32,000 bases of DNA from Pirellula staleyi DSM 6068 (GCA_000025185.1 CP001848.1:3720001-3752000); one strand, 5' to 3'; shown: positions 344 to 28,868, counted from the stretch's first letter. Notes: generated by a model not told the origin, from the letters alone. Numbers and translations: made by a program.

Positions 344-369
344 CTTGAGAGTCAAGCGTGCTACAAGCG

Positions 370-3566: not shown

Positions 3567-3591
3567 AAATTCACGCTGATGGTGCGGAGCA

Positions 3592-3858
3592 CTAGGCTGC
3601 TCGAGGACGCGCTAGTCCGAGCAATTCCTTCACGCGTGGGGGTGCGCTCGTGGCATCAAGCGTGGGATCGTTTTGCAGCGTACTGGTGACGAGCTCGAGT
3701 TGCTCGACCATCGTCAGCGCCTGATCTAAAAAAAGATAGCGGCGTCCGCCAAATTCACACATGCCGCCACCTGCGCCACCGAGCCATTCGTGCCGCACGG
3801 TGTAGCCCATTCGCTCTGCCAGCGCGATCGCACGCTCCAGTAGTTCGACAGTATGCAT
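3592..3858 (-). CDS. Small hypothetical protein (about 88 aa), no recognisable family
   Basis: ORF 3592..3993. I prefer the internal ATG at 3858 (MHTVELLERAIALAERMGY...), which is preceded by GGAGAAG. The composition is protein-like but I recognise no motif. Confidence 0.45.
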   Translation of the reverse strand: MHTVELLERAIALAERMGYTVRHEWLGGAGGGMCEFGGRRYLFLDQALTMVEQLELVTSTLQNDPTLDATSAPPRVKELLGLARPRAA

Positions 3859-4096
3859 CCCAGCTTCTCCAGTTCGCCAATCCGTGGCCGCAATTCGATC
3901 AAGCGGCCGGATTATAAGCCGCGATGCTGATGCGAGCCAGTTCGATTCGTCGATACCACAACAGACGTCACGAGCGTCACGATCGTTAAGCATGGGTTGC
4001 TAGCGGAAGGGTGAAATACCTGTATCTGCTAGCGGTTCGTGCTGTCGCGTGATCGAGTTTTGCGACGACGCATGTTGCACTTGGGGGAGGACTGGA

Positions 4097-5854: not shown

Positions 5855-5877
5855 GCGAGGTGATTTGGTTCTTGGAT

Positions 5878-7251
5878 TTAAAATCGGCTGCGAATGACAG
5901 GGCGATTCGACGAGGCGTTGTCGGTTGTGGGAGGTGTACCAATCACGCTCGGAGCGGTGCTCGTTGGAACTGGCGTGGCGACAGCCGCGGACGTGGTCCG
6001 CGAAGCGAGGTTCTGTAACTGCTGCTTGCATTCGAGCATCAGCAGGGCATCGCAGCGTGTGGCCGAACTATCGAGCGGAAGAATTTTGGCGAGCGGACCT
6101 TTCGCGTCGGGCACAGGACTCGCTACCACGCCACACGAAAGGAGTAGCACTTCATCGCTCGACCATTGAAAACGCTCGTGTAGTCGCCAGCTTACGATTT
6201 GCGGCACTTGCACCGTCACACGCTGTGCTTGGCTAGGGGTAGGGACATCCACGACCAGGGGCAACATTTTCTCAACCTGATCGACGTGGCACTTAATGAC
6301 TGTATCGATTGATTTTCCACCCACAGCCACCAGCGGGCTGATCTCGAGCGAGAAGCCTTCGTCGATCTTTCCGCTAAGCATTTCGTAGCCTGGCCAACTA
6401 TCGGCTCGCATCTTAATGCCACGCGAGTACGAGCGAGGCTGAGTTCGGGCAATTCGTAGCGACTCGCCACTTGCAACCTCTTGATGGGGCGAGCCGAGTT
6501 CGCGGAAATCGGCCCGCTCACGCAAGGTTCCGATCAGCACCGCAGCATTCTCTTTCGAGAGGAGCCACGCTTCCACGCCTGTCGCTTTGACATCGACAGG
6601 CTTCATCATCGGGAGCATTTTCGTTCGCCAGCTTGGGCTGCTCACGGTGATTAACTTCACCGAGAGTGCCTGCCCTTTTCGCGAACTGGTTACGAACTGT
6701 TCTACCATTCCCTGCACCACTGCCTGCATCGACGGAGTGTGGTAGACCCGAAGTGTGGTGGGGGTAGCGGAAAGGACACCAAGTGGCTCGGCAAACCAAA
6801 CTTCCGTTCCGGTTTCGCGTAAGATCCAGTCGACGATCAGTTGCTCGGGGTGTTCGCCACCAACCACCGACGTATAGGGGCTGATGTCATACTCGCGCCA
6901 AATCTGACCATGGTCGTTAGGCAGCGTTCCGTTCCCCTTGGTCACCTTCACGCTACTCTCGAGCGGATTGCGATCGATCCCAATGGGAGTCAGGGGTGTT
7001 TGCGGAGAAGTGATCGTGCCAGCAGTAGGCTGTGGGGCAAAAACACCGGGAGGAGGTGGCAAGTTGACAGCGGAATTGGGTGAAATCGTGGCAGGTGGAT
7101 TGGCCGTTGCTGGTGCTGCAGCCCCGGTGCTCCAGGGCCATTTGATTCCAAACTGAGCCCGTGCTTCGAGAGGCGAAATCAGGTTCACTAGAATTGTCGC
7201 CGCGATAAGCGCGCAAGGCATCACGGGCCTTGAATTCCATGGGCACTTCAT
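5878..7251 (-). CDS. Secreted protein of unknown function (Pro-rich N-terminus; faint secretin-like beta-domain pattern)
   Basis: ORF 5878..7434 trimmed to ATG 7251 (MKCPWNSRPVMPCALIAATILVNLISPLEARAQ, a signal peptide), preceded by GAGGAG. Long uninterrupted ORF directly upstream of the lipoprotein gene. Confidence 0.55.
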   Translation of the reverse strand: MKCPWNSRPVMPCALIAATILVNLISPLEARAQFGIKWPWSTGAAAPATANPPATISPNSAVNLPPPPGVFAPQPTAGTITSPQTPLTPIGIDRNPLESSVKVTKGNGTLPNDHGQIWREYDISPYTSVVGGEHPEQLIVDWILRETGTEVWFAEPLGVLSATPTTLRVYHTPSMQAVVQGMVEQFVTSSRKGQALSVKLITVSSPSWRTKMLPMMKPVDVKATGVEAWLLSKENAAVLIGTLRERADFRELGSPHQEVASGESLRIARTQPRSYSRGIKMRADSWPGYEMLSGKIDEGFSLEISPLVAVGGKSIDTVIKCHVDQVEKMLPLVVDVPTPSQAQRVTVQVPQIVSWRLHERFQWSSDEVLLLSCGVVASPVPDAKGPLAKILPLDSSATRCDALLMLECKQQLQNLASRTTSAAVATPVPTSTAPSVIGTPPTTDNASSNRPVIRSRF

Positions 7252-7558
7252 CGGGAAGACTCCTCTACAACATCGGCAAACGATCGAAGGCTTCATCGCG
7301 CAGGGACTTACGAGCGCGCGGCAAAGCGGCGGGAGTGTAGCGACGACATCGCAGCTGGCCAAGGTCAATGAACCCCCGGAAAACCTTGGGCCAATCGCTG
7401 CTAGCAGAAACTTGCAGCAAGTTTTGCTTTCCAACGCACGAGCGGCCGTTTATGCTTCTCCAGCGGAGTTCGGCTGACATGCTCCGCGCGACAGCCGATC
7501 TCCTTCCCTCCTCGACGATTGCCCACTCCTCCTGCCTCACGTTCTCGGAGACTTCTCG

Positions 7559-9781
7559 ATGCTCGCTTGCCGCGTGTTCCGTTTTGCTCCTTCGCTAGCG
7601 ATCGCCGTGACTCTGCTGTTGCTGCAAAGCATGGTCGCTTATGCCGAGCCTGTCCGAGTGCTTGCAGGTGGGGCCAAGTCGGCTGATGTACGGCTCGCTC
7701 CCCCCAAAGATCTGGATGGCTACTTCCCCTTCACGCCCAGCAAATCTCCCGAACTCTGGCAGCCTCGCGCGGAGGAGTTGAAGCGCCGAGTGCTCGTGTC
7801 GCAGGGGCTTTGGCCTATGCCGCAAGGGGCCGATCTTAAGCTCTCGATCCATGGGCTTGTCGACATGGGGGACTACACAATCGAAAAAGTGTCGTTTGAG
7901 AGTATTGCAGGACTCTACGTCACAGGAAGTCTCTACCGACCGACGAAAGCCACGGGCCAGCGCCCTGGAATTCTTTGTCCCCATGGTCACTGGAATGAGG
8001 GGCGATTTCACGATGCTGGTCGGCAGAACACACGCCGCGAAATCGTAAAGGGAGCCGAACGTTTTGAAGAAGGGGGGCGTAGTCCGCTGCAATCGCGCTG
8101 CGTGCAACTTGCTCGCATGGGCTGTGTTGTGTTTCACTACGACATGCTTGGCTACGCCGATAGCCGACAGCTTTCGTTCGAACTGGTGCATCGCTTTGCG
8201 AAACAACGCCCCGAGATGAACCATCCAACCGAGTGGGGGCTCTACAGCCCGCAAGCCGAGTCGAATTTGCAATCGGTCATGGGGCTGCAAACCTATCACA
8301 GCATGCGAGCCCTCGATTTCCTTGTCTCGCTGCCAGATGTCGACCCGGCACGATTGGGTGTGACCGGTGCTAGTGGTGGCGCTACGCAAACCTTTTTGCT
8401 CGCAGCTGTCGACCCTCGGATTGCTGCCGCATTTCCTGCTGTGATGGTTTCGACCGCCATGCAAGGTGGTTGTACCTGTGAGAATTCATCGCTGCTGCGC
8501 GTCGGGACCGGAAATGTTGAACTCGCCGCACTCTTTGCCCCTAAGCCGTTGGGACTCACCTCCGCAGATGACTGGACGCGCGAGTTCCACCAGAAAGGGA
8601 TGCCCGATTTGGCCGCGCACTACGCCATGATGGGTGCGCCAAGCAACGTGCAACTCACGGCGTTAACCCATTTTGGCCACAACTATAACTACGTCAGCCG
8701 CGCGGCGATGTACTCATTCTTCAACAAGCACTTCAAGTTGGGACTTGAGGAACCGATTGTGGAGGAGGATTACAAGTTTCAAACAGCTGCGGAACTTACG
8801 GTGTGGGATGCCGAGCATCCCTTGCCTGAATCTGGCGATTCGTTTGAGCGCAAGCTCTGCCGCGCATTGGCAGCCGACACGCGGAAGCAACTCGATGCTT
8901 TACGTCCAAATTCAGCTGACATGCTCGAAAAATATCGTGATGTTGTCGGTGGTGGGGTGAGTGTAGTGATTGGCCGATCGCTCCCAGCAGCGAGTTCACT
9001 CGAGTACGACCAAAAGATCAAAACAGACCGTGGCGACTATATCGAGATGCATGGTCTGGTGAAGCACAAGCCAGCTGGTGAGGAAATTCCAGCCTCGTTC
9101 TTGTATCCCAAAGAGTGGTCGGGAAGTGTTGTCCTTTGGATCGATCCAGCTGGAAAGAGTTCGATTCTCGATGCAACAGGTGCACCAACTGCGCCTGTAA
9201 AAAAGTTGATGGCGGCTGGTCATGCTGTGGCATCTGCCGATTTGCTGGATCAAGGCGAACAGCGTCTGGGTGATGCTTCTCAGAACCGTGTCGTTGCAAA
9301 TCCTCGGGAGTTTGCGGGCTACACCTATGGCTATAACCCGTCCCTTTTTGCTCAGCGGGTGCACGATGTGCTAACGATGGTGGCTTTCATTCGTAGTCAC
9401 GAGCGCGAGCCAAAATCGCTCGCCATCATTGCCGGCGAAGGTGCTGGGCCTTGGGCACTCGCCGCTCGTAGCCAAGCTCCGACGGCCATCAATCTGCTGG
9501 CGGCCAGCAGCGGAGGATTTCGATTTGCTAGTGTGGCCGATTATCGTCACGAACACTTCTTGCCAGGTGGTGCGAAGTACGATGATCTTCCGGGTATGAT
9601 CGCTCTATCGGCCCCGGCCAAGCTGTGGCTCGCGGGTGAGTCGGAAGCTGCGGTATCGCTGGCGAGTGATGCGTACGCCGCTGCTGGAGATCGCGCCGCG
9701 CTTACTCTTGCCACCAAGCCCGAAGATGGGACCGTTGACAAAGCTGTGGCGTACATCCTGGGCCAACTTCCCGCAAAATAG
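7559..9781 (+). CDS. Secreted alpha/beta hydrolase (acetyl-xylan-esterase / dienelactone-hydrolase-like) with long C-terminal extension
   Basis: 740-aa ORF; ATG 7559 after GGAGA. Signal peptide AIAVTLLLLQSMVAYA. Nucleophile elbow LGVTGASGGATQTF (GxSxG) preceded by CPHGHWNEGRF. The C-terminal half repeats the strand-elbow pattern without the Ser (LAIIAGEGAGPWAL). Confidence 0.6.
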   Translation: MLACRVFRFAPSLAIAVTLLLLQSMVAYAEPVRVLAGGAKSADVRLAPPKDLDGYFPFTPSKSPELWQPRAEELKRRVLVSQGLWPMPQGADLKLSIHGLVDMGDYTIEKVSFESIAGLYVTGSLYRPTKATGQRPGILCPHGHWNEGRFHDAGRQNTRREIVKGAERFEEGGRSPLQSRCVQLARMGCVVFHYDMLGYADSRQLSFELVHRFAKQRPEMNHPTEWGLYSPQAESNLQSVMGLQTYHSMRALDFLVSLPDVDPARLGVTGASGGATQTFLLAAVDPRIAAAFPAVMVSTAMQGGCTCENSSLLRVGTGNVELAALFAPKPLGLTSADDWTREFHQKGMPDLAAHYAMMGAPSNVQLTALTHFGHNYNYVSRAAMYSFFNKHFKLGLEEPIVEEDYKFQTAAELTVWDAEHPLPESGDSFERKLCRALAADTRKQLDALRPNSADMLEKYRDVVGGGVSVVIGRSLPAASSLEYDQKIKTDRGDYIEMHGLVKHKPAGEEIPASFLYPKEWSGSVVLWIDPAGKSSILDATGAPTAPVKKLMAAGHAVASADLLDQGEQRLGDASQNRVVANPREFAGYTYGYNPSLFAQRVHDVLTMVAFIRSHEREPKSLAIIAGEGAGPWALAARSQAPTAINLLAASSGGFRFASVADYRHEHFLPGGAKYDDLPGMIALSAPAKLWLAGESEAAVSLASDAYAAAGDRAALTLATKPEDGTVDKAVAYILGQLPAK

Positions 9782-9881
9782 TTGTCCCTCGATACTTGCC
9801 ACTGCGCAATGTGGTGTGTAAATTTGTTCATGGCTGTGTTCGTGTAAAGAACATGGCCGTGGTTTCCTTCAGGGAGGGCTG

Positions 9882-10343
9882 ATGATGTCGCGCAGTTACA
9901 TTCGATTTGTCTGGGCCGCAGTGTGGCTCGTAGCAATGTGGATGGCAGTCCAGACAACGCAAGCCCAGGAATCTGCCCCTGAAACCAAGGCCAATCCGGT
10001 GGGAGAATTGGTTGCTCGCATCACCAAAGCGGTAGGAGACGATAAGCCGTTCTCGCTGATTGTCCGTTTGAAGTTAAAGCCAGAGGCGATCGAAAGTTTC
10101 ATCGCAGCGGCTAAAGAGGGGGCTGCTGAGAGTCGCAAAGAAGCAGGCTGCCTGCTCTACGACTTTCACCAAAATCAAGAGGACCCCACCGAAGTGTTCG
10201 TGCTCGAGAATTGGAAAGATGTCGCCGCACTCAAGCTGCATCTCGCCTCGCCTCATTTTGCAAAACTTGGGGCTGCTGTGGGACCGGCTGTTGTCGAACC
10301 GATGCAAGTTCGCATCACGAAGCTGGTCACCCCGATCCAGTAG
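9882..10343 (+). CDS. Antibiotic-biosynthesis-monooxygenase (ABM/YgiN-like) domain protein with signal peptide
   Basis: 153-aa ORF, GGGAGGG Shine-Dalgarno before ATG 9882, signal peptide ending TTQAQE. ABM ferredoxin-like pattern FSLIVRLKLKPE...F..A......SRKEAGCLLYDFHQN..DP..F.VLE.W.D..AL..H..S.HF. Confidence 0.65.
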   Translation: MMSRSYIRFVWAAVWLVAMWMAVQTTQAQESAPETKANPVGELVARITKAVGDDKPFSLIVRLKLKPEAIESFIAAAKEGAAESRKEAGCLLYDFHQNQEDPTEVFVLENWKDVAALKLHLASPHFAKLGAAVGPAVVEPMQVRITKLVTPIQ

Positions 10344-10378
10344 CCACATCAGAATTCGGAGGCGGATGAGTCGTGAGG

Positions 10379-11362
10379 CTATTTGGCTCTCTTGGCTTCG
10401 ATGCAATCCTGAATGATGGAATCGAGGTCGTATGCAGCCTGATAAGCGATTGTTCGTTTCAGTTTTGATAGGTCGGGAACGCGGCGACGAATGTCCTCGA
10501 ACGTTTTGTCGTACGCTTGCTGGTACGACACGAATTCCACCTGCGACTCGCTTCGCGCGAGCGCAATCACACGTTTAGCAAGCTCTAAAATCGAGACGGG
10601 CTGATCGCTGCCGATGTTGAAAATTTCGCCCGTGGCTTCGTGAGTTTTCATCAGCCGCAGCACAGCCGAAACGACATCACGCACATGAGCAAAGCAGCGC
10701 GTTTGCTTGCCATCGTCGTGCACCTGCAGTGGGTGCCCCATGAGTGCAGCATCGACAAATCGTGGTAAAACCATGCCGTAGGCACCGGTTTGTCGCGGGC
10801 CGACGACATTGAAAAAACGCCCAATCACGATCGGAAGTCGACTCGTCTTGTAATGGGCAAGAGCCAGGAATTCATCAACCGCTTTACTCACCCCGTACGA
10901 CCAGCGTGGTTTGGTCGTGCTGCCAAACACCAAGTCGTCTTCCTCGTTCCAGACCGGCTTCGGATTTTTTCCATACACCTCGCTCGTGCTGGCGAGGAAC
11001 AATTTGATGTAGCGACCAGCCCGATGCTGCTGCAGCACCAAATCGAGTAGCTGATGCGTGGGAAAGATGTTTCGCTCGATGGTCTGGATCGGCTGGCTGG
11101 CAATCAGTGCCACCCCCACGGCAGCTGCTAGGTGATACACCTCGTCGATCGACGGAATCACATCGGCGACGATTTTGGCGTCGGCAACGCTCCCCCTCAA
11201 AAGCTGAAGTTTTGGGTGCGATTTCACCTTGGCCAGATTGTCGAATTGGCCGGTCGACTCATCGTCGATCACCGTGACATGGCAACCTTCGGCCAAAAGG
11301 GCTTCGGTGAGATACGACCCAATGAACCCGGCTCCACCTGTCACCAATACCTGTCGTGTCAC
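10379..11362 (-). CDS. NAD-dependent epimerase/dehydratase (extended SDR; UDP-glucuronate decarboxylase / UDP-sugar epimerase-like)
   Basis: Rossmann VLVTGGAGFIGSYL, ASTSEVYG, catalytic YGVSK. Start is uncertain. GTG 11362 puts the GxxGxxG about 8 aa from the N-terminus (typical) and follows AAAGGA. ATG 11473 or 11539 would add 37-59 non-conserved residues. Confidence 0.75.
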   Translation of the reverse strand: MTRQVLVTGGAGFIGSYLTEALLAEGCHVTVIDDESTGQFDNLAKVKSHPKLQLLRGSVADAKIVADVIPSIDEVYHLAAAVGVALIASQPIQTIERNIFPTHQLLDLVLQQHRAGRYIKLFLASTSEVYGKNPKPVWNEEDDLVFGSTTKPRWSYGVSKAVDEFLALAHYKTSRLPIVIGRFFNVVGPRQTGAYGMVLPRFVDAALMGHPLQVHDDGKQTRCFAHVRDVVSAVLRLMKTHEATGEIFNIGSDQPVSILELAKRVIALARSESQVEFVSYQQAYDKTFEDIRRRVPDLSKLKRTIAYQAAYDLDSIIQDCIEAKRAK

Positions 11363-11894
11363 GTCCGGTCCTTTGTAACCGCGTAGCGTCAAACTGCTTG
11401 CTATCGCGACCGATTCCAGCCTGTCGGTGATAGCTCGTTCTCGATTGTGACCTCCCCAGCAAGCTGCCGCCATGCCTGCTAGAGAACCTCGGGGGAGCGA
11501 TTTGGAACTTTTTCCTTCGCCAGTTCGTAACACTCGCACCTGGTGAGGACCATACGACTACAACCTCTTCTGCTACTCCGTTCGGACTCAGCGACCCGCC
11601 CTTGGCCGAAAAACAGCGGTCCATCGGCTCGCGATTTGCCTGCGGATGAGTAGGGCAGCTTTACGCCCCTTCCGTGCAGAAGTAGACTCGCAGATAGGGT
11701 TTGTGCGCGGTGATTGTATCGCGGGCACATAAGAATCCATGGAAATGACGGGATCGATTTGGGCACGTTGCGGCAGGTGTGCGGCTGAAATGCGACTCTC
11801 CTTGTGAGGGGGCTTCCAGCCTGACGCTTGGGACCATGCGGCAACAACACTCTCCACCGGCTCGGCAGCCGTTTGAACTTTGAGGGAATCTGCG

Positions 11895-14800
11895 ATGCGA
11901 TATGCAGCGATTCGATGGACTCACGTGGTGTTTTTGCTGGCGGGGATGCTCGCTGGGGGGGCACTGTCTTTCACTACTGTGGCACAGGCTCAGGAAAAAC
12001 CAGCGGAGTCGCCCCCAGCAGCACGCCAGAAGTTTGTCGACGCCGGTAACTTCCAAAACAACGGCGCTTTCGACCTCGCAGTCGACGAGTGGCAGGCATT
12101 CCTCAAGGCCTATCCGACCGATCCACTCGCTGGCAAAGCACGTTACTACCTGGGCGTCTGTTTGCTGCAGCAGAAAAAACCCGAAGAGGCTCTCGCCGCA
12201 TTCGAAAAGGTGCTCGCGGACTATCCCAAGTTCGAGCAAATGGAAGACTTGCTCGTCAATCTCGGCAGCTGTCAGTATTCCCTGGGGCAAGCGGGAAAAG
12301 CGGAGATGTTTGGCAAGGCTGCCACCTCCTACGCCAAGCTGGCCAAAGATTTTCCCAAGAGCAAGTTTGTCGAAGAGTCGCTCTTCTATCAGGGAGAATC
12401 TCTCTACTCGGCTGGCAAGAAGGGCGAGTCGCTCGCACCTTACGAGCAGTTGATCAAAGATTTTCCGAAGAGCACTCGTCGTGAAGAAACTCTCTACGCG
12501 CTCGGCTGCACGCAAGAGGAACTGGGTAAGTATGAACCAGCTTTAGCTACTTTCGAAACACTGCTGAAAGAATTTCCCGAGAGCAAACTTGCCACCGAAG
12601 TGACGATGCGAAAAGCAGAGGCGCTTCTGCAAAAGGGTGACTTGGCCGCCGCTGAAAAGCTGTTTGGCGAAGTTGCGGCCGTGAAGGGATTCTCTCAGGC
12701 GGACTATGCCTTGTTGCGACAAGGGACAGCGCTCGCGAAGCAAGAAAAGTTTCCTGAAGCAGCGGCGGTGCTTGTGAAGCTTGTCACCGATTTTGGCTCC
12801 TCGGCCTACGTCGCCGATGCCACCCTCGGCGCTGCTCGCTACTTCTATCGTGCCAACAACGATGCCGAAGCCGAAACGTGGCTCAAAAAAGTAGTGGAAG
12901 CCAAAACACCAGCCGCTGCAGAAGCTGCCCACTGGCTCGCGCGCCTGTACATCAAAACCGGTAAGCCAGCCGATGCTGAGAAGGCGGCAAAGGACGCACT
13001 TGCTGCCGGAGGGGATAGCCCGTATCTCGTCAATTTGCTCCTCGATCAAGCCGACGCACTTTTCGAAATTTCCGAGCGTCGCGCTGAGTCGCTTCCGCTA
13101 TTCCTGAAGTTTGCTGCCGATCATGCTTCGCACGAGCAAGCTCCGCTGGCGCTCTATAGTGCGGCATTTACTGCGCTTGATCTGAAAAAATTTGACGAAG
13201 CCCTAAAGCATGCTGCTGACTTCGAGAAGGCTTACGCCACCGCGCCACTTCTGCCCGACACCAAATACGTTGCAGCCGAGGCCAATCTTCAGCTTGGCAA
13301 ATTGCCTGAAGCAGAAGCTGCTTATCGAGAACTGGTTGAAAAGTTTGCTTCCCACGCCGAGGCCGATACGTGGAAGATTCGACTCGCACGCACGCTGCTG
13401 CTCGAGAAAAAATACGACGATCTCGTCACCACGGTCACTCCCCAAATTACGACGCTGAAGAAGCACGAACTCGTTGCCGAGGCTCATTTCCTCGTCGGCA
13501 GCGCTCAGTTCTTTGCCGACAAGTTCAAGGAAGCCGAAACCTCGCTCAATGCGTCGCTCGCAGCCGATCCGAAGTGGCGTCAAGCCGATGAAACGATGCT
13601 GCTCGTTGCACGGACGCAGCGCAAGCTCGATCAGGTCGATGCCGCTAAATCAACGCTCCAAAAGTTGATGACCGACTTCGCTAGTTCAACGGTACTTGAT
13701 CAGGCCCATTACCGCATGGGAGAGATTTTGTACGCCGCCAATGATTTTGCAGGATCAGCCACCGAGTATTCGGTAGTCGTTACGAAGTACCCTGAAAGTC
13801 CTTTTGCTCCCTATGCTCTTTATGGTCAGGGATGGTCGCTACTGAAGTCGAAAGAGTTTGCCAAAGCGGTCGAAAGCTTCACTTCGGTAATCGACAAACA
13901 TGCGTCGCACGAACTCGTGGCAGATAGTCAGTACGGACGTGCCGTGGCGCGTCGACAAGCAGGAGACGCCGCGGGCTCACTGGCCGATTTCGATGCTTAC
14001 CTGAAAAAAGAGCTCACTCCCGATCAGAAATGCGACGCCCTCTATGAACGTGGTTTGGCACAAGTTGCCATCATGAAGTACGCCGATGCCGTGGCGAGCT
14101 TCGACGAACTGCTGAAGGTGAACGCCAAGTATTCGGCCGCCGATAAAGTGCTTTATGAATTGGCTTGGGCTCAAAAGTCGCTCGACAAACATGCTGAAGC
14201 GGTTCCCCTGTTCGAGAAGATCGCCAAGGATTATCCCGAGAGCCCACTCGCAGCAGAGGCTTGGTTCCGTGTTGGTGAGGATCAGTACGAGAAGAAAACG
14301 TACGACGTGGCGGTAAAGTCCTACACTGAAGCGATGGGGAAAAAACCGGCTGGCGAACTGGGTGAAATGACGAGCTATAAGCTTGGATGGGCCAATTTTC
14401 AGCTGAAGCAGTATCAACCCGCACTCGATAGTTTCTCGTCGCAAGTGAAAGATCATCCCGCTGGTCCGCTCTCGGCCGACGGTATCTTCATGAAGGCGGA
14501 ATGCCTCTTCCGCATGGAAAACTATAAAGACGCTTACCCAGCGTACGAAGCCGCCTCGAAGACCAAGTTCTCGAGTCCCACGTACGAAATGCTAACGCTG
14601 CTCCACGGTGGTCAAAGCGCCGCCCAACTCAGCAAGTGGGACGATGCACTGAAGCTCTTGTCGCAGATTCCCGCTAAATTTGCCGACTCGCCTCTCTTGC
14701 CCGAAGCTACTTATGAAATCGGCTGGGCCAAGCAGAACCTCGGCAAGCTCGACGAGGCGCTCGTCGACTACGAAGCAGCTGCGAGTGCCTCGCGTGATCA

Positions 14801-15125
14801 AGTCGGAGCGAGGGCTCGCTTCATGCGTGGTGAGATCATGTTTGAACGCCGCGAGCATGATGCTGCGATCAAGGAGTTTCAGCGCGCCATGTTTGGCTAT
14901 GGTGGAGATGCTGCGGCACCGGAAGTGAAGAACTGGCAGGCACGTTCGGGTTTCGATGCCGGACGCTGTGCTGAAGTGCAGATCATGGGTGCTGCCGATG
15001 CTGCGGCGAAGGCCAAAGCGATTGCCGAAGCAAAGCGGCTCTACACCTATGTGGTTGAGAAGCATCCGCAGCATGAACTTGCGGCCGAAGCGAAAAAACG
15101 ACTCGCCGCACTCGAAAAACTATAG
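11895..15125 (+). CDS. Secreted giant TPR protein built from repeated CpoB(YbgF)/BamD-like TPR units
   Basis: ATG 11895 after GAGGGAA (the ORF track starts at TTG 11880). Signal peptide VVFLLAGMLAGGALSFTTVAQAQ. At least 8 recurrences of the unit signature D[YFH]P.S....E..[FY]..G...: DYPKFEQ, DFPKSKFVEESLFYQGESLY, DFPKSTRREETLYALGC, EFPESKLATE, KYPESPFAPYALYGQGW, DYPESPLAAEAWFRVGE, DHPAGPLSADGIFMKAE, KFADSPLLPEATYEIGW, KHPQHELAAEA. Confidence 0.8.
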   Translation: MRYAAIRWTHVVFLLAGMLAGGALSFTTVAQAQEKPAESPPAARQKFVDAGNFQNNGAFDLAVDEWQAFLKAYPTDPLAGKARYYLGVCLLQQKKPEEALAAFEKVLADYPKFEQMEDLLVNLGSCQYSLGQAGKAEMFGKAATSYAKLAKDFPKSKFVEESLFYQGESLYSAGKKGESLAPYEQLIKDFPKSTRREETLYALGCTQEELGKYEPALATFETLLKEFPESKLATEVTMRKAEALLQKGDLAAAEKLFGEVAAVKGFSQADYALLRQGTALAKQEKFPEAAAVLVKLVTDFGSSAYVADATLGAARYFYRANNDAEAETWLKKVVEAKTPAAAEAAHWLARLYIKTGKPADAEKAAKDALAAGGDSPYLVNLLLDQADALFEISERRAESLPLFLKFAADHASHEQAPLALYSAAFTALDLKKFDEALKHAADFEKAYATAPLLPDTKYVAAEANLQLGKLPEAEAAYRELVEKFASHAEADTWKIRLARTLLLEKKYDDLVTTVTPQITTLKKHELVAEAHFLVGSAQFFADKFKEAETSLNASLAADPKWRQADETMLLVARTQRKLDQVDAAKSTLQKLMTDFASSTVLDQAHYRMGEILYAANDFAGSATEYSVVVTKYPESPFAPYALYGQGWSLLKSKEFAKAVESFTSVIDKHASHELVADSQYGRAVARRQAGDAAGSLADFDAYLKKELTPDQKCDALYERGLAQVAIMKYADAVASFDELLKVNAKYSAADKVLYELAWAQKSLDKHAEAVPLFEKIAKDYPESPLAAEAWFRVGEDQYEKKTYDVAVKSYTEAMGKKPAGELGEMTSYKLGWANFQLKQYQPALDSFSSQVKDHPAGPLSADGIFMKAECLFRMENYKDAYPAYEAASKTKFSSPTYEMLTLLHGGQSAAQLSKWDDALKLLSQIPAKFADSPLLPEATYEIGWAKQNLGKLDEALVDYEAAASASRDQVGARARFMRGEIMFERREHDAAIKEFQRAMFGYGGDAAAPEVKNWQARSGFDAGRCAEVQIMGAADAAAKAKAIAEAKRLYTYVVEKHPQHELAAEAKKRLAALEKL

Positions 15126-15232
15126 AAGCGTTTGTAGCGGTATCCCCGATCGAATCAACGGACTCAGCACACTTGGGCAGATCAATCCATGGGGCGATCT
15201 GCCAACTTGTTCAAGCGAAGGTGACAGTGGTT

Positions 15233-16174
15233 ATGCAAGCTATTCGTCGACATTACCGACTGCTGTTGCTCGCAGTTTTCCTGCTGGGCTCTTTGGCCAT
15301 CTCATCGCTCACTCTCCGCCAAGTTTGGGCTCAGACACCAGCCGATACGCAGGCAGGCCCAAGCGCCGATCCTGTACCGACGGGAAGTGAAACGACAGAA
15401 GAAGCTGTCCCGGCAGCGGCTCCCGCGCGCGACGATTCAATCAACGTGCTGCAACTGGCGCTCGATGGTGGGATCTTCATGATTCCGATTGCCGCCATGT
15501 CGCTCCTGGGAGTGACCATGGCAATCGAGCGTTTCATCGGTCTGCGAAAAGAGCGAATTCTTCCCGACGGACTCGTCACCGATCTCGGACAGCTAAGTCT
15601 GCAAGGTGGTTTTGATCCGCGAAAAGCCTATCGCATTTGCCAGCAGTATCCATCGTCGGCAGCCAATATCGTCCGTTCGATGCTGCTGAAAGTCGGCCGT
15701 CCACTTTCAGAAGTGGAGCATACCGTGAGTGAAGCAAGTGCTCGCGAAGCCGATCGCTTGTATGGCAATGTCCGGTGGCTCAATCTGGCCGCTTCAGTGA
15801 CACCGCTGCTAGGTCTACTCGGAACGGTGCAAGGGATGATTCTGGCGTTTCATATGACCACCGTCATCGACGCTGGGCAAAACAAGTCGATCGCGCTGGC
15901 CGAAGGTATTTACACCGCGCTGGTCACCACGTTTGCTGGGCTGACCGTGGCAATTCCAGCGGCGATGCTGTCGCACTACTTCGAAGGTCGGATTCAAACG
16001 TTGTTCCACCAAGTCGACGAGTTGATCTTTAACCTGCTGCCGCAGATCGAGAAGTACGAAGGCCGTGTTCGATTTGGTCGAGCGGGTGGCGAGCCCGACA
16101 TGACGCTCGACGAACCACGTCCCGCACCTGCTGCGCAGCAAGCTCCCGCAGTGGCAGCATCGTCGTCGAAGTGA
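15233..16174 (+). CDS. exbB: MotA/TolQ/ExbB proton-channel family protein with N-terminal signal-like extension
   Basis: Motifs LLGLLGTVQGMILAF and ALAEGIYTALVTTFAGLTVAIPAAMLSHYF. ATG 15233 after GAAGGTGA gives MQAIRRHYRLLLLAVFLLGSLAISSLTLRQVWAQ. The exbB versus tolQ assignment cannot be made from sequence alone. Confidence 0.85.
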   Translation: MQAIRRHYRLLLLAVFLLGSLAISSLTLRQVWAQTPADTQAGPSADPVPTGSETTEEAVPAAAPARDDSINVLQLALDGGIFMIPIAAMSLLGVTMAIERFIGLRKERILPDGLVTDLGQLSLQGGFDPRKAYRICQQYPSSAANIVRSMLLKVGRPLSEVEHTVSEASAREADRLYGNVRWLNLAASVTPLLGLLGTVQGMILAFHMTTVIDAGQNKSIALAEGIYTALVTTFAGLTVAIPAAMLSHYFEGRIQTLFHQVDELIFNLLPQIEKYEGRVRFGRAGGEPDMTLDEPRPAPAAQQAPAVAASSSK

Positions 16175-16267
16175 AGTCTGATTGGCTAAGGTTGCGAGTT
16201 CGGTTTCCGTTGTCGGTCGAGATCCAATCGGTTTCGGAAACTTCGATTAGCTGAAGGTTGGTGCGTG

Positions 16268-16684
16268 ATGGCGGTGAAGATCAACAAGGGTAAAGCCCTC
16301 GACCTGTTCAACCTTACACCCATGATCGACATGGTGTTCTTGCTTTTGATTTTCTTTCTCGTGGCAAGCCGGTTTGAGGAAGAAGATCGCGAGCTCGATG
16401 TGGAGTTGCCGAGCGCTAGTGAAGCACGTCCGCAGATCTCGAAGCCAAAGGAAATTTACGTCAACGTCGATAGCACGGGTAAGATGTTCGTGGATGGACG
16501 CGTGGTGAGTTCACTTGAACTCGACCGCTTTCTGACACGTGCGGCTGTCGACAATCCACTGGGACAAACAGTGGTGATTCGCGCCGACAAACGAGTGGAA
16601 CTCGACAGCGTGGTGGTGGTGATGAACTTGTGTAATAAGGCCGGAATTCGCGATTATTCTCTCACCACTGCGGGCGAACCGTAA
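16268..16684 (+). CDS. exbD: ExbD/TolR biopolymer transport protein
   Basis: 138-aa ORF (GTG 16265 / ATG 16268 after GAAGGTTGG). Single TM with the conserved Asp: LTPMIDMVFLLLIFFLV. Periplasmic domain pattern IYVNVD..G....DG......L......VVIRADK.V....VV.VM..C..AGI. Confidence 0.85.
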   Translation: MAVKINKGKALDLFNLTPMIDMVFLLLIFFLVASRFEEEDRELDVELPSASEARPQISKPKEIYVNVDSTGKMFVDGRVVSSLELDRFLTRAAVDNPLGQTVVIRADKRVELDSVVVVMNLCNKAGIRDYSLTTAGEP

Positions 16685-16728
16685 CGAGTCGTAGCGAGCA
16701 TAGGGCACGCGAGACGGAATTAATAAGT

Positions 16729-19700
16729 ATGGCCAAGATCAGACGCGTCGTTCGCAAGGTGCAAGCCAGCGGGGGCGACTATTTTGACGAGCATCTGTGG
16801 CCCGTATTTATTGCGCTCGTCGTTCTCGGCGGCTTCTTGATGGGCATTAGCGCGGCCTATCTCAAGTTCAGCGATACGCCCTGGTATGCCAATGCCCTCA
16901 CGTCGCTGATTCTAATTCCGGTCGTCATCGCGGCTTTCATGTTCGCGTTTTGCTACGTCGACAACCGCGTAGTGCGGCGCTCGATGCAGCTGTCGGTGGT
17001 GCTGTGTGGCATTCTGCATATCGCCCTCGTGATTCAAATGCTCGAGACCAAGATCTTCAGCGCGTTCTTCGATGAACCTGCAGCAACCGAGCAGATTGTC
17101 GAGCGCCGTCCGCCGAAAGTCATTCCCGAATATCGCCCCGAACAGTTGCTGCCTGCAGAGGATCGTCCACGGCAAGATTTCGAACGTCCTGTGGAAACGC
17201 AGACCCCTGAACCTGTGGAACCCGTGACCGAGATTGTTCGTCAGCCAGAACAAGAGAAGCAAGAGACCCCGCCCGAGCCGCAGCCGGTGCCAGTTCCCGA
17301 GCAAGTGGCGACGACTGAGCCCAACGTGGTGAAGCGTCCCCGGCCGAACGAAGCGGCTCCGCGACAAGCGGAGCAAGCGTCGAAGCTTTCTCGACAAACC
17401 AAGCCATCGGAAATGAAGGTGAGTCAGGTCACCGAGACGCCGCAGATCACGGAGCCTCGCCCGACTGGTGTAGAAGCGACAGCTGCGAAAAGCACGGTGA
17501 AACGTCAAGATCCAGCCGCCTCTCCGAGTGGCAAAGTGGCTGCCGATGCGCCGAGTAGCACGCTCGATACTCCGCAGCCCCGCGTAGCACGGCAAACGGC
17601 ACAGCGTTCGGCCGAGCAGTCTGCGACAAAAACCCCTACGCTCGAACGCGCAGTAGCAACGCCTGCGGCAACTCCGCGATCGCAAGTGGCTGTGAGTGAG
17701 ACCCCAGCGACCTCGAAAGCGACAACGCCAACGGAGCTTGCCCCATCGACAGTCTCGCCCACGAAGCGGACAGCTACTTCGGTTGAAGTTGCCAGTAAAG
17801 AAGCGACCGATGTACCACTGGCTCGAGCCACTCCCGATTCGAAGCCTCAGCGAGCAGAGCTTCCCTCGGAGCAGCGTCCTCAAGTGGCTCAGGCACAGCA
17901 GCCAACTCCTTCTCGTCAAACTCGCAACACGGCCAGACCTGACTTAGCAACTGCTGCCGCCGAAGTTGCACCAGGAGAAGCCAGCCCCACTGCTCAGCCG
18001 ACGGAAATGGCGCCAGCTGCGACGGCGCTTGCGCGTGCCTCGGCCGAAGTTTCGTCGCCGACTCCGTCGACCACGCCCGCCACGGAACCGAACACGGCCA
18101 ATACACAGCAAGCAGCAGCGCGTATCGCACGTACGACGGGCCAATCGGCTCCGGCAGCAACGGCCAATCCTCAAGCAACCCCGACTCGCACGCGAGCTAC
18201 GGGGAATCCCAGCATCAATAACGCCCCGCAAGTGGAGGTAGCTGCTGCCGCGCCGACCACGGCCTCGACATCGGGCGAACTGGCTCCATCGAGCATGGCG
18301 ACACGTCGTCAAGCGACAGCCGAGAGTGAAGCAGCTCCATCGGCAGGTAATCCGACTCCTGCGGCAGTCGCGGCTGCGACCCCTAGTAATACGCCAAGCG
18401 AGACACCGCGTCGCACGACAGTAGCAGCCAGTAGTGGTGATGCGCCTCCTGCTGATTCGCCTGCTCAGCCTGCACCGAGTGCTCGCTCCAGCACGCGACC
18501 TGCTGTAGCCAATGTGGTGACCAACGTGAGTGACGTGCCGACCAATGCCGCGCCAAACACGGCTGCCAGCAGTAATCCTGGCCCCTCGAGTGCCACAGTG
18601 TCGCGTCAAACTGCTCCCGGAAGTGTCGCAGCGCAGCGCACGCAAAACAGTGCCGATAGTGCTTCCTCGAGCGCTGCCACTCAAATCACCGCAGGCAGCT
18701 TCAGCCGAGTCCCAACCGCTCAATCGCCATCGATCTTGCCTGCACCAGTGGCGGGAGCTCCTCGCCGAGCTGTGGCTGCAAGCAACAGCGCCACATCGCC
18801 CGCTGCTGTCGAAAGTCCAGCTGCAGCTGTGGCGCAGGGAAGCGGCGACCAGTCGGCTGAGCCGGCCCGCATGGCACTCAGTCGATCGATTGCAGGGACC
18901 GCAGGGGCTGGTCGTTCGCCAAACTTCGATCGGGCACTTCCAGGAGCCGAAAGCCCAGCTCAAGTTGCCTCGGCTGCCGCTCGACGTGCAGAAGCAACGC
19001 AAAAAGCGGAACCTGGCGATGCGCTTTCCCCCAGTGCACCTGCGACGGTAGCTCGCTCGCGTAGCGATGCCGATTTGCCTACCGCATCGCTGCGTGCCGA
19101 AGCTACGGAAGTCGCCACCGCTCCAGGCAGCAACACTACGGCTGACATCTCGGCGAGCTCTAGTGCCGCACTCTCTCGCGCCGATGCCAATGCACGTCCG
19201 TCGCAAGTCACAGGTGCACCTGGAGCCAGCGACGTTGACGTCGGCAGCACGCAGGTGGTGGCCGAACAGGGGATGGGGCGTGCTTCTGGAGGTGGGCAAA
19301 CGCAGCTGAATTTCGATACTCAGTCGCCCCAGATCGCCCGTCGAACCAGCAGCGGCGGAGCCCCCATCGTATCGCTCGCCGCGGCTGATCTAGGAGATAC
19401 TGCTTCGGCCCCAATGGCTGATGGTGGTGGACAACCGTCGGCTGCTCAGCCCGATGCCACCACGCTGGCGATCAATCGCACCACAGCTGGAGGTGAGTCG
19501 ACGATTTCTGGCGGCCCTTCGAAAGCAGATGAAGCTGGCCCTGTCACCGAAGTGAACACCGCACAAACCCTTGCTCAAAGCCAAGTGAGCCGCGCCGACA
19601 ACTCCGATGGTTCGGCTTCCGGAGGTGGCGAGCCGGCCCTCACCGCTGAAGAAGAGGAAGAAGAGCGTAAGCGTCGCTTAGCACGCGCTGCAGCCGGTGG

Positions 19701-21765
19701 AGCCCCTCAACTGGCGCTCAGCGGACCGACACTGGCCGACGTAGCAGCATCTCCGATGGGCGATGGTGGCGACGGTGGGACTCCCTCTCCAGAGCCTAAC
19801 GCCGCACCTTCGGCACTGGCGACCAATCGTCAACAAAGTCCTGATGGTGGTGCGCCAGCCGGTGGTGCTCCCCAAGCTCTGGCCGCCGCTGGTGAACCCG
19901 GCGAGTCGGGAGCTGAAACCAAGGGGGCCATCGCCATTGCTCGCGCTGAAGCTGCCGAAGCAACACCGGGCACTCCTGAGGTAGGTGGCGGAACCGCTTC
20001 CCCTTCACGCGCACCAACAGGTCCCGCTTTTGTCGCTTCAGCTCAGGCCGATGTGGCGATGGTAGGTGGCATGCCCGAGTCGGGTGGTTCGCCTCAAGGT
20101 GCCCCGCTGGAAGCCCAAGGAGTTGACGGCGGACGCATTGCTGGTGGCGCTCGTGCAACGGCTGATAGCGGACCTGCCGGAGCGATGGCGGGAAGTGAAG
20201 TGGCGATCGCCGATTCGGTCGGGGGAGCAGGTTCCGCGCCTGGAAGTCGCAGTACATCAGCCGCTGGTAACGAAGGTCCGATGGTCGATGGCTCCGATGT
20301 GGCTGGGGGTCCAGCCCGCTCGAGTGTCGATTCACCAGGACCTCTCGGAGCGTCGGTGGTGGCCGAGATTCCTGAAATCGGGCCCAACTCTGCAGTAGCT
20401 CAAGCCGAACTCGATCACAGCATGGGTGGCATGGGCGACACGCCCATGTCGCGACCCGCTGGTGAGGCAATTGCCGTGAACATCGAAGCTCCGGATGGAC
20501 CCGGTGGACTCGGTAGCGAATTCACACCCCAGGTTGGCCTCAACAATCGTCAGGCTCGCAGCGACAGCATCGACGTGCAAGTTCGCACGGCCCGATTTGT
20601 CCGACAAGCAGTGGGTGGTCTGCCGAGCATCAGCACCACGGCGATCGTTGCCACCGATTCCTTCTCCAAGCGTTCTTCGCGAACTCCTGGAACGGAATCG
20701 GGAGGTGGCAAGGGGGCTCCACCACCGCAGACAGAAGAAGCGATTGAGATGGGGCTCGAATTCTTGGCTCGTCATCAACAGCCCGATGGAAGTTGGTCGC
20801 TGCAAGGATTTGGCGAAGAGACCATGCTCGTGAGCGATACTGGGGCGACAGCGCTCGCGCTCCTCTCGTTCCAAGGGGCCGGGTATAACCATCGCGAGCA
20901 TCGCTACAAAGATGTGGTGCGCATGGCCCTCGACTACATGATTAAAAATCAAAAGGAAGATGGCGATCTCTTCCTGCCGCTCGACGATCAGTCGAATCAA
21001 AGTGTCTGGCTCTATAGTCACAGCCTGGCGACGCTGGCTCTCTGCGAAGCCTATGGCATGACGCAAGATCCCTCGCTGAAAGAACCAGCCCAAAAGGCAA
21101 TTGATTTCATCGTCAAATCGCAGCATCCCGAGCGTGGCGGCTGGCGCTATTCACCCGGCGTAAGCGCCGACACGTCGGTCACAGGCTGGATGACGATGGC
21201 CCTCAAGAGTGGCGAACTGGCGAACCTTGAGGTTCCTCCCGAGACCTACACCAAGATTCAAAAATGGCTCGATTCGGCCCAAACTTCGGCTGATAGGCCT
21301 TACGAATATCGCTACAACCCACTCGCCCCCGACACCATCGAACAGCGTCATGGTCGGGCTCCCACAAAGTCGATGACAGCCGTGGGGCTCCTCATGCGAC
21401 TCTATACCGGCTGGCGTCGCGACAACCCGAACATGGTGAGTGGTGCCGACTATCTCAAGGAACACTTGCCAGCGATCGGCTCCGCGCGTCAACCAGAACG
21501 AGACACCTACTACTGGTACTATGCCACGCAGGTGATGTTCCACATGAAGGGTGACTACTGGAAAGAGTGGAACGCCAAACTCCACCCACTGCTAGTGAAC
21601 ACGCAAGTGCAGCAAGGTCCGCTTGCCGGAAGTTGGTCCCCTCGCGGACCAGTTCCTGATCGCTGGGGCCCCCATGGTGGTCGCATCTACGTCACCACGA
21701 TGAATCTGCTTTCGCTCGAAGTCTACTACCGCCATCTGCCGCTGTACGAAGACACCGCGAAATAG
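16729..21765 (+). CDS. Giant membrane-anchored protein: N-terminal TM helices, TonB-like Pro/Glu spacer, about 1,100-aa Ala/Pro/Thr/Ser-rich low-complexity region, C-terminal prenyltransferase/squalene-cyclase-repeat-like alpha/alpha-toroid domain
   Basis: 5,037-nt uninterrupted ORF starting 44 nt after exbD. Three hydrophobic helices lie in the first ~110 aa (PVFIALVVLGGFLMGISAAY, LTSLILIPVVIAAFMFAFCYV, LSVVLCGILHIALVIQML). It continues with PEPVEPVTEIVRQPEQEKQETPPEPQPVPVPEQ. The C-terminal ~340 aa carry QPDGSWS, ERGGWRYSP, PLAGSWSP and YYWYYATQVMF motifs separated by helix pairs. Confidence 0.8.
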   Translation: MAKIRRVVRKVQASGGDYFDEHLWPVFIALVVLGGFLMGISAAYLKFSDTPWYANALTSLILIPVVIAAFMFAFCYVDNRVVRRSMQLSVVLCGILHIALVIQMLETKIFSAFFDEPAATEQIVERRPPKVIPEYRPEQLLPAEDRPRQDFERPVETQTPEPVEPVTEIVRQPEQEKQETPPEPQPVPVPEQVATTEPNVVKRPRPNEAAPRQAEQASKLSRQTKPSEMKVSQVTETPQITEPRPTGVEATAAKSTVKRQDPAASPSGKVAADAPSSTLDTPQPRVARQTAQRSAEQSATKTPTLERAVATPAATPRSQVAVSETPATSKATTPTELAPSTVSPTKRTATSVEVASKEATDVPLARATPDSKPQRAELPSEQRPQVAQAQQPTPSRQTRNTARPDLATAAAEVAPGEASPTAQPTEMAPAATALARASAEVSSPTPSTTPATEPNTANTQQAAARIARTTGQSAPAATANPQATPTRTRATGNPSINNAPQVEVAAAAPTTASTSGELAPSSMATRRQATAESEAAPSAGNPTPAAVAAATPSNTPSETPRRTTVAASSGDAPPADSPAQPAPSARSSTRPAVANVVTNVSDVPTNAAPNTAASSNPGPSSATVSRQTAPGSVAAQRTQNSADSASSSAATQITAGSFSRVPTAQSPSILPAPVAGAPRRAVAASNSATSPAAVESPAAAVAQGSGDQSAEPARMALSRSIAGTAGAGRSPNFDRALPGAESPAQVASAAARRAEATQKAEPGDALSPSAPATVARSRSDADLPTASLRAEATEVATAPGSNTTADISASSSAALSRADANARPSQVTGAPGASDVDVGSTQVVAEQGMGRASGGGQTQLNFDTQSPQIARRTSSGGAPIVSLAAADLGDTASAPMADGGGQPSAAQPDATTLAINRTTAGGESTISGGPSKADEAGPVTEVNTAQTLAQSQVSRADNSDGSASGGGEPALTAEEEEEERKRRLARAAAGGAPQLALSGPTLADVAASPMGDGGDGGTPSPEPNAAPSALATNRQQSPDGGAPAGGAPQALAAAGEPGESGAETKGAIAIARAEAAEATPGTPEVGGGTASPSRAPTGPAFVASAQADVAMVGGMPESGGSPQGAPLEAQGVDGGRIAGGARATADSGPAGAMAGSEVAIADSVGGAGSAPGSRSTSAAGNEGPMVDGSDVAGGPARSSVDSPGPLGASVVAEIPEIGPNSAVAQAELDHSMGGMGDTPMSRPAGEAIAVNIEAPDGPGGLGSEFTPQVGLNNRQARSDSIDVQVRTARFVRQAVGGLPSISTTAIVATDSFSKRSSRTPGTESGGGKGAPPPQTEEAIEMGLEFLARHQQPDGSWSLQGFGEETMLVSDTGATALALLSFQGAGYNHREHRYKDVVRMALDYMIKNQKEDGDLFLPLDDQSNQSVWLYSHSLATLALCEAYGMTQDPSLKEPAQKAIDFIVKSQHPERGGWRYSPGVSADTSVTGWMTMALKSGELANLEVPPETYTKIQKWLDSAQTSADRPYEYRYNPLAPDTIEQRHGRAPTKSMTAVGLLMRLYTGWRRDNPNMVSGADYLKEHLPAIGSARQPERDTYYWYYATQVMFHMKGDYWKEWNAKLHPLLVNTQVQQGPLAGSWSPRGPVPDRWGPHGGRIYVTTMNLLSLEVYYRHLPLYEDTAK

Positions 21766-21806: not shown

Positions 21807-23138
<1,332 letters not shown>

Positions 23139-28794: not shown

Positions 28795-28868
28795 GTCTCT
28801 CGTTATCGACGAAGCTGTGCCGCGCACGCAAACTTTTCGCTCTGGGGTCACCTTTCCGGAAAGGCACG

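Follow-up and report, generated by a model that had tools for sequence, protein, structure and literature searches.

The subject of this analysis is a four-gene cluster, Psta_2881 to Psta_2884, of Pirellula staleyi DSM 6068, which lies at positions 11895-21765 of a 32,000-nucleotide (nt) stretch of DNA (GCA_000025185.1, CP001848.1:3720001-3752000), hereafter referred to as the window. Coordinates are counted from the first nucleotide of the window, and features are encoded on the plus strand unless marked otherwise. A preliminary description had interpreted the cluster as a proton-driven module of the Tol/Ton kind with an unusual effector, consisting of four co-directional genes separated by 107, 93, and 44 nt. 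Open reading frame (ORF) calls reproduced this layout, with all four ORFs on the plus strand at the stated coordinates. The gaps hold for the ExbB start at ATG 15233 and the ExbD start at ATG 16268, and the first of them shrinks to 47 nt with the ExbB start of the public gene call (TTG 15173).

In RefSeq, Psta_2881 to Psta_2884 are named tetratricopeptide repeat protein, (ExbB), biopolymer transporter ExbD, and prenyltransferase/squalene oxidase repeat-containing protein, respectively. Profile searches among the ORFs of the window gave no match to TonB_C, TolA_C (TolA domain III), TolB, Pal/OmpA, or a TonB-dependent transporter, the families that had been reported as missing before.

Architecture of the four proteins

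Psta_2882 (15173..16174, starting at TTG 15173 or ATG 15233) is a proton-channel subunit of the ExbB/TolQ type with a cleavable signal peptide plus an N-terminal extension. Its match to PF01618 (MotA_ExbB; E = 1e-23, 84 bits, gathering threshold 22.9) bears out the earlier assignment as a MotA/TolQ/ExbB channel. Psta_2883 (16268..16684) is the single ExbD/TolR subunit of the cluster (PF02472; E = 5e-27, 95 bits, gathering threshold 25.4), and the database record for exactly this protein is P. staleyi ExbD/TolR. The transmembrane (TM) Asp to which the preliminary description had drawn attention is encoded by codon 16328-16330 and was found in 34/34 orthologues. The TolQ/TolR models scored slightly higher with the pair than the ExbB/ExbD models did (57.9 against 34.2 bits for Psta_2882, 66.7 against 57.6 bits for Psta_2883), with all scores lying far under the TolQ/ExbB and TolR/ExbD equivalog cut-offs of NCBIfam; for Psta_2882, these are 221 bits (TolQ, TIGR02796) and 206 bits (ExbB, TIGR02797). 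Judged from these scores, Psta_2882 and Psta_2883 belong to a divergent stator clade. In TM1 of Psta_2882, the motif AAMSLLGVTMAIER, whose Ser is located at nt 15500, matches TolQ SIASWAIIIQR in the spacing from Ser to E/Q-R. Among 50 ExbB orthologues, this TM1 Ser (48/49), a TM2 Thr (50/50), a TM3 Thr-Thr pair (49/49), and a TM3 Pro (48/49) were conserved.

The fourth gene, Psta_2884 (16729..21765), is a single ORF of 1,678 amino acids (aa) encoding the candidate force transducer. The preliminary outline of this giant protein, with N-terminal TM helices, a Pro/Glu-rich spacer, an extended region of low complexity, and a folded C-terminal domain, was found to be correct. Hydropathy revealed a three-helix membrane anchor (16798..17046) composed of TM1 (16798-16863, aa 24-45), TM2 (16888-16956, aa 54-76), and TM3 (16984-17046, aa 86-106), which is conserved in 177/193 full-length relatives. 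The N-terminus is predicted to reside in the cytoplasm and the C-terminus in the periplasm, because the basic N-terminus and the basic TM2-TM3 loop fit the positive-inside rule; TM3 would therefore be oriented like the TonB/TolA helix. TM1 begins with a nearly invariant Trp-Pro (W24-P25, 16798-16803).

TM3, with the sequence MQLSVVLCGILHIALVIQMLE, contains the motif C93-G-I-L-H97 (17005..17019; S/C/G/A-x3-H/N in the family), a candidate ExbB-docking pair. Of 177 orthologues, 141 carry His at the polar position and 33 carry Asn; Met, Tyr, and a gap account for 1 each. Four residues earlier, Ser is found in 128, Cys in 30, Gly in 12, and Ala in 5. On a tree of the toroid domain described below, the His/Asn position requires a parsimony minimum of 13 state changes, and Asn occurs in 10 separate clades; thus, His and Asn were exchanged independently at least 10 times, and a third residue was almost never admitted. 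The Ser-x3-His(Asn) pair is under strong selection. Alignment of the anchor profile with residues 1-70 of TolA by hhalign placed TM3 on the TolA helix, with the motif in register with Ser18/His22. In cryo-EM structures from 2025, TonB Ser16/His20 contact ExbB Ser34/Trp38, and TolA Ser18/His22 contact TolQ Ser28/Trp32 (PMC12215075). According to the title of Swayne & Postle 2011 (via PMC8928145), Asn fully replaces His20 in E. coli TonB.

The ExbB side of this putative contact was found to vary with the state of TM3. The residue at +5 in ExbB TM1, beside the Trp position, is Thr in 32/40 loci with His and in 1/7 loci with Asn (Fisher p = 0.0016, uncorrected for phylogeny), with the Asn loci spread over several clades. 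In hhalign, TM1, not TM3, paired with the E. coli TonB helix via the 'PWPTLL' start of TonB (14% probability); this pairing may be due to chance, or TM1 and TM3 may both carry TonB-like features. Searches with the anchor, either as a single sequence or as a 32-sequence profile, returned short fragments only and no proteins bearing other heads.

Downstream of the anchor, the composition defines a periplasmic tether from aa 107 to ~1308 (17047..20652). Its start is Pro/Glu-rich (P+E = 38% in aa 107-200), and it continues as ~1,100 aa of Ala/Ser/Pro/Thr/Gly-rich low complexity up to ~aa 1300; in a longer AlphaFold2 construct, aa 1225-1302 were disordered, with a predicted local distance difference test (pLDDT) of ~30. 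The length of the tether ranges from 262 to 1,761 aa in the 177 orthologues (median 750), and only the two ends of Psta_2884, aa 17-150 and aa 1250-1678, are universally conserved. The first of these regions extends beyond the membrane and includes the short motif PKVIPEYR (17113..17136), ~34 aa past His97, which is followed by D-F-x-x-P-V-E. In the columns of the PKVIPEYR motif (n = 177), Pro was counted 125 times, Glu/Asp/Gln 154 times, and Tyr/Phe/His 158 times. The strict forms [TV][VI]P[ED]Y, ~34 residues past the His, and then D[FW]xxPV[ED] were far more frequent than in shuffled sequences, and both sit in an otherwise variable disordered region. A 'motor box' has been described for TonB/TolA (PMC12204202), and by analogy these post-membrane motifs are candidates for a 'motor box' or a partner-binding site, with a sequence unlike that of TonB/TolA.

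Several further observations concern the tether itself. Conservation of its segments aa 150-400, 700-950, and 1080-1250 extends to only about half of the orthologues. At aa ~980-995 (~nt 19670-19710), the otherwise uncharged Ala/Ser/Gly-rich tether is interrupted by an acidic-basic island, TAEEEEEERKRRLARAAAGG. The corresponding DNA (17000-20000) has a GC content of 62-64%, compared to 55-58% in its flanks, as well as a strongly positive AT skew of up to 0.21, and long shadow ORFs run opposite to it, e.g., one of 451 aa at 17944-19299 (-). Tandem Repeats Finder detected no tandem DNA repeats in the tether. We also considered whether the giant ORF could be an artefact of GC-rich low-complexity DNA, and rejected this since the ORF is intact, its ends are conserved, and it occurs in more than 60 genomes.

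The C-terminal domain of Psta_2884 (aa 1336-1678, 20734..21762) is an (alpha/alpha)6 toroid, according to an AlphaFold2 model based on a 40-sequence alignment (pLDDT 90, predicted template modelling score 0.91) and to Foldseek; this is consistent with the earlier statement that it belongs to a fold class unrelated to those of TonB and TolA. A short docking helix (~aa 1310-1316) precedes the barrel in the longer construct. Foldseek searches of the PDB returned only generic (alpha/alpha)6 barrels with a template modelling score (TM-score) of ~0.6 and 10-17% identity, including the single-domain SHC 8paj, AprG 9c95, MstE 6sbe, glucose/cellobiose 2-epimerases, and GH76, while a profile search of PDB sequences yielded only marginal QW-repeat matches to terpene cyclases. 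Four QW-like repeats are present in the toroid, which reached 22.3 bits with Pfam PF13243 (cut-off 26.1). An active class II terpene cyclase was rejected, as DxDD is absent (SADTS at the equivalent helix cap) and PF13243 remained below its threshold. Likewise, a cryptic TonB_C (PF03544) or TolA_C (PF06519) domain, which would have made this an ordinary Ton system, was not detected by profile searches of Psta_2884 (no TonB_C match at E <= 0.1), nor was there a match to the VWA domain of Pfam. Invariant residues of the toroid probably cluster where its six inner helices are capped at their N-terminal ends, a place that usually forms the ligand funnel in this fold.

No part of the module is better conserved than the toroid, whose median identity is 64%, compared to 58% for ExbB, 54% for ExbD, 47% for the tetratricopeptide repeat (TPR) protein, and 43% for the anchor. 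When clustered at 50%, its family comprises 13,817 representatives at E <= 1e-3 and 4,697 at E <= 1e-30. In the best 150 of these representatives, the domain is nearly always located at the end of proteins of 680-2,293 aa.

The first gene, Psta_2881 (11895..15125), encodes a secreted solenoid of 1,076 aa that consists entirely of TPRs. Its signal peptide (aa 1-31) ends with VAQA|QE, and a lipobox Cys is absent. Within-protein iteration resolved ~15 tandem units of ~75 aa of the YbgF/BamD type over aa 62-1075, supported by matches to Pfam TPR_16 (E = 1e-57), to the NCBIfam model tol_pal_ybgF (TIGR02795; 341 bits, summed over 11 repeated stretches, with a cut-off of 90), and to the BamD model (148 bits in 8 stretches). 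The preliminary description of a CpoB-like giant TPR protein was therefore accurate with regard to secretion, size, and type of repeat, but does not extend to orthology with CpoB, since the full-length model PRK10803 gave 123.5 bits against a cut-off of 383 bits. The coiled-coil trimerisation domain of CpoB (PF16331) had no match in Psta_2881 either, and the protein is four times longer than CpoB.

The length of the TPR protein is nearly constant (1,068-1,119 aa in 49 orthologues with 32-58% identity), in contrast to the nearly seven-fold variation of the tether, which suggests that it acts as a structural ruler or scaffold. Its best conserved part is formed by the C-terminal ~90 aa (14800-15060), with the pattern ARARFMxGEIxF...AIxEFQRVMFGFGG...WQAKSGxEAGRCxE. 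Within this segment, W1014-Q1015 are invariant and one Cys is nearly so, and the segment could therefore be an interaction site.

Conservation of the cluster in Pirellulales

A genome scan with one genome per species revealed at least 520 loci with a relative of Psta_2884, and synteny was determined for the best 80 of them, using as denominators those loci that have enough upstream DNA. All 80 loci belong to Planctomycetota, and the named genera among them (Anatilimnocola, Blastopirellula, Roseimaritima, Rubripirellula, Rhodopirellula, Allorhodopirellula, and Ca. Laterigemmans) are all Pirellulales; Anatilimnocola, Roseimaritima, Allorhodopirellula, and Laterigemmans represent cultured genera of the order. 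The gene for ExbD adjoins the giant gene upstream on the same strand in 61/64 loci, or in 62/64 if locus L042, in which an overlap of a few nucleotides caused an artefact, is counted. The ExbB gene occurs in 58/60 loci and the TPR gene in 44/48. The linkage to ExbD spans loci with 59-75% toroid identity, and the related loci carry one ExbD, like the window. Clustering of the flanking ORFs identified no other conserved neighbours except for an upstream epimerase in 20 close relatives. The arrangement recurs in dozens of genomes, more often than by chance, and is not limited to P. staleyi, one of the points on which the preliminary description had made its interpretation depend.

The giant gene forms one ORF, 798-2,273 aa long, at nearly all of the related loci. 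In L001 (6442-9233), L002 (6745-9479), and L043, all from long-contig metagenome-assembled genomes (MAGs), it is split into 2-3 frames within the tether, which probably reflects assembly or homopolymer errors. Gene callers report a 'toroid only' protein of 410-520 aa at these loci, which could mislead surveys of the family. With regard to the first gene, the TPR gene is absent from L067, and in L050 its place is taken by a 1,265-aa protein of the FG-GAP/ASPIC type (357-4154) with a weak TPR match. In R. baltica, the exbB/exbD pair RB12053/RB12055 has been reported to be induced after one hour of salt stress (PMC2754498).

Relation to known motor systems and candidate mechanism

Motors of the ExbBD/TolQR type with 5:2 stoichiometry were long believed to work solely via TonB or TolA. 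With the Ton system, the cluster shares PF01618 and PF02472 proteins including the TM Asp, a Ser-x3-His helix that tolerates Asn and is predicted to run from the cytoplasm to the periplasm, the partner Ser in ExbB TM1, and a Pro/Glu-rich spacer, which here is ~10 times longer. It differs from this system in lacking TonB_C and a nearby TonB-dependent transporter. The marginally higher TolQ/TolR scores of the stator, the alignment of TM3 with the TolA helix, and the presence of YbgF-type TPRs are reminiscent of Tol-Pal, from which the cluster is distinguished by the lack of TolA domain III, TolB, Pal, and YbgC.

The Myxococcus AglRQS complex is a TolQR-type stator that energises envelope-spanning partners other than TonB and TolA, among which GltG and GltJ keep TonB_C-type domains and act inside the large Glt complex. 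The Psta locus resembles this system in combining a TolQR-type stator with a non-TonB, non-TolA partner, but contains no Glt-like genes. With class II terpene cyclases, prenyltransferase beta-subunits, and other (alpha/alpha)6 barrels, Psta_2884 has the fold and the QW-like repeats in common; unlike these enzymes, it is predicted to be periplasmic and tethered to a motor-linked anchor, with low identity, Pfam scores below gathering, and no DxDD.

The closest precedent is found in PVC (Planctomycetes-Verrucomicrobia-Chlamydiae) bacteria, in which force transducers whose head is of the vWA (von Willebrand factor A) type are encoded behind TPR-tolQ-tolR-tolR genes (Williams-Jones et al. 2025, Mol Biol Evol, PMC12204202). 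In these transducers, which have been reported in Planctomycetes as well, the TM helix bears the His of the SHLS motif, the linker is disordered, and the C-terminal domain is not of the TonB type (PMC12204202). Psta_2884 is similar in its inner-membrane anchor with a TonB/TolA-type Ser/His motif, its disordered, Pro-rich linker, and a head other than TonB_C, as well as in being encoded downstream of TPR and tolQ-like genes, the latter being a likeness of gene layout. In contrast, its head is an (alpha/alpha)6 toroid and not a vWA/Rossmann fold, one ExbD/TolR gene takes the place of a heterologous pair, three TM helices replace one, and the tether measures 262-1,761 aa compared to ~100 aa. A toroid or prenyltransferase-type head is not mentioned in PMC12204202, and our literature search found no description of a toroid-headed architecture or of Psta_2881-2884. 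The earlier statement that this architecture is undescribed therefore holds for the specific arrangement, but has to be qualified by the precedent of the vWA-headed systems. Since a defining feature of each is lacking, the proteins are not members of the TonB, TolA, CpoB, vWA, or terpene cyclase families; known is the principle of motor and transducer, while novelty lies in the head domain, in the anchor of three helices, and in the great and variable length of the tether.

Taken together, it is probable that the four genes form one envelope machine, in which Psta_2884 would transmit force in the manner of TonB/TolA but with a new head domain. The proposal of the preliminary description that an ExbBD-type stator energises a new kind of effector is supported by synteny, the intact motor residues, the TM3 motif, the partner Ser of ExbB, the co-variation of an ExbB TM1 position with the His/Asn state, the TonB-like layout of Psta_2884 (anchor, Pro/Glu-rich segment, disordered spacer, globular C-terminus), and the precedent of the vWA-headed transducers. 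Planctomycetes, moreover, are devoid of Pal (supplement of PMC12204202), and their set of Tol-Pal genes is largely reduced (PMC8871954), so that an ExbBD-type motor in these bacteria needs another partner. We infer physical coupling, transmission of force, and a target of the head. In such a machine, ExbB5-ExbD2 would sit in the cytoplasmic membrane as an ExbBD/TolQR-type stator that converts proton flow into movement, and TM3 would dock Psta_2884 to the outer face of the ExbB ring, using the Ser-x3-His(Asn) face known from TonB/TolA. The post-membrane motifs probably touch the periplasmic domain of ExbD, the TPR protein, or both. The disordered tether would carry the toroid across the periplasm, which can be greatly enlarged in Planctomycetes (PMC5394234), to a target located on or close to the outer membrane or the wall, so that the action of the motor would pull or reposition the head or its target. 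The length-invariant, secreted TPR solenoid would serve as a periplasmic scaffold or adaptor, and with ~1,075 aa it could span the periplasm as a scaffold or sheath for the tether.

Several points weigh against this reading. The alignment of the anchor with TolA has a probability of just 31% over 25 columns, and the Leu-x3-Ser half of SHLS, described as the less conserved part of that motif (PMC12215075), is not present in TM3. Psta_2884 has three TM helices, while TonB and TolA have one. On the side of the stator, the position of ExbB Trp38/TolQ Trp32 is Val in Psta_2882, and the Glu equivalent to ExbB E176 is retained in only about half of the orthologues. The co-variation test between ExbB and TM3 is confounded by shared ancestry. 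Moreover, the tether is much longer than a normal periplasm needs, and no outer-membrane partner for the toroid was identified. Finally, two Pirellulales MAG loci, L049 (giant gene 7355-11122) and L073 (8489-11137), have no ExbB, ExbD, or TPR gene within 7-8 kb upstream of a full-length giant orthologue that includes the anchor, and the module can therefore be split or relocated.

If the force-transducer reading is correct, the toroid would be the second independent swap of the head after the vWA transducer described in 2025, which had established that the head domain is swappable, and motor-coupled force transduction would be a modular principle instead of two special cases. More tentatively, Psta_2884 may represent a third structural class of motor-coupled transducer, after those with the TonB/TolA C-terminal domain and with the vWA head. 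This class would combine an enzyme-like head with a tether of 260 to ~1,760 aa and would power a planctomycete-specific process, such as uptake sensitive to carbonyl cyanide m-chlorophenyl hydrazone (CCCP) or Pal-independent coupling of outer membrane and wall in budding. Planctomycetes offer a setting for either, with Pal absent, a variable and enlarged periplasm, and macromolecule uptake that depends on the proton motive force.

Among the alternatives, the likeliest, though it is doubtful, is a substitute for Tol-Pal that would work by the same motor and transducer and, while cells bud at the pole, link the inner membrane with the outer membrane or the wall, with the TPR protein as a CpoB-like coordinator. 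The lack of Pal and the reduced Tol-Pal gene set of Planctomycetes, the YbgF/CpoB-type units of Psta_2881, the slight preference of the stator for TolQ/TolR, and the near-universal occurrence of the module in the sampled order, which fits a housekeeping role in the envelope, are in line with this view. However, neither TolB, nor a Pal-like gene with an OmpA domain, nor the CpoB trimerisation domain was found, and the preference of the stator is one between scores that are all far below the equivalog cut-offs.

It is unlikely that Psta_2884 is not mechanically coupled at all, but is an independent periplasmic enzyme or binder with a membrane anchor that is co-transcribed with ExbBD, the latter serving another transducer encoded elsewhere, such as one of the vWA type or a divergent TonB. 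Such transducers with a vWA head exist in Planctomycetes (PMC12204202), the three-TM anchor differs from the single helix of TonB/TolA, and the two loci without ExbBD nearby would be readily explained; the highest conservation being that of the toroid (64% vs 54-58% for ExbD/ExbB), together with its invariant funnel, is enzyme-like as well. This is countered by the linkage of ExbD to the giant gene in 62/64 loci, by the restriction of S-x3-H/N to His or Asn through at least 10 switches, and by the co-variation with ExbB TM1. Furthermore, DxDD is absent, and no enzyme family scored above its gathering threshold.

Still less probable is a TonB-like energiser of import, for which the toroid would grip an outer-membrane pore or a glycan to allow macromolecules to enter the enlarged periplasm at the expense of the proton motive force. 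CCCP abolishes the uptake of dextran and green fluorescent protein into the planctomycete periplasm (PMC5394234), and a role of this kind would agree with the carbohydrate-active GH76, the 2-epimerases, and AprG with bound N-acetylglucosamine among the structural neighbours of the toroid, with the invariant residues at its predicted ligand funnel, and with the long, variable tether. On the other hand, these structural matches are generic (TM-score ~0.6, 10-17% identity), no outer-membrane barrel or partner with a TonB-box-like sequence is encoded nearby, and uptake has been shown mainly in Planctopirus and Gemmata, while the module is known here from Pirellulales.

A machine for surface motility or adhesion akin to Agl-Glt, in which an adhesin or fibre crossing the envelope would be driven by the motor, is highly improbable, given that no Glt-like partners, secretins, or adhesin domains were found nearby, that the head is a compact toroid and not an adhesin fold, and that Pirellula is not known to glide. 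This option had been raised by the Ser/Thr/Pro/Ala-rich tether, which resembles fibre or mucin-like linkers, by non-flagellar stators of the MotAB/TolQR type (AglRS) that power gliding (PMC12505986), and by gliding having been considered for the vWA systems (PMC12204202).

Regardless of which of these applies, the cluster offers a concrete candidate for work on the planctomycete envelope, being a motor module that is conserved across the order and carries a head yet to be explained. For the force-transducer reading in particular, the Ser-x3-His/Asn motif and the co-varying position of ExbB provide a falsifiable handle for mutagenesis.

Flanking genes and further observations in the window

The cluster is flanked on both sides by genes on the opposite strand, namely an epimerase gene (10379-11539, -) and an HD-domain gene (21807-23138, -). 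A scan for promoters and terminators was uninformative, with 0 promoter-like sites and with terminator-like ones scattered within genes. Elsewhere in the window, sizeable ORFs of 355, 518, 347, 279, and 423 aa at 4964-7434 (-), 26972-28851 (-), and 28985-30256 (-) gave no Pfam family at E <= 0.05 or marginal matches only. A 4-nt overlap between two of these ORFs, 26972-28015 and 28012-28851 (-), hints at translational coupling.

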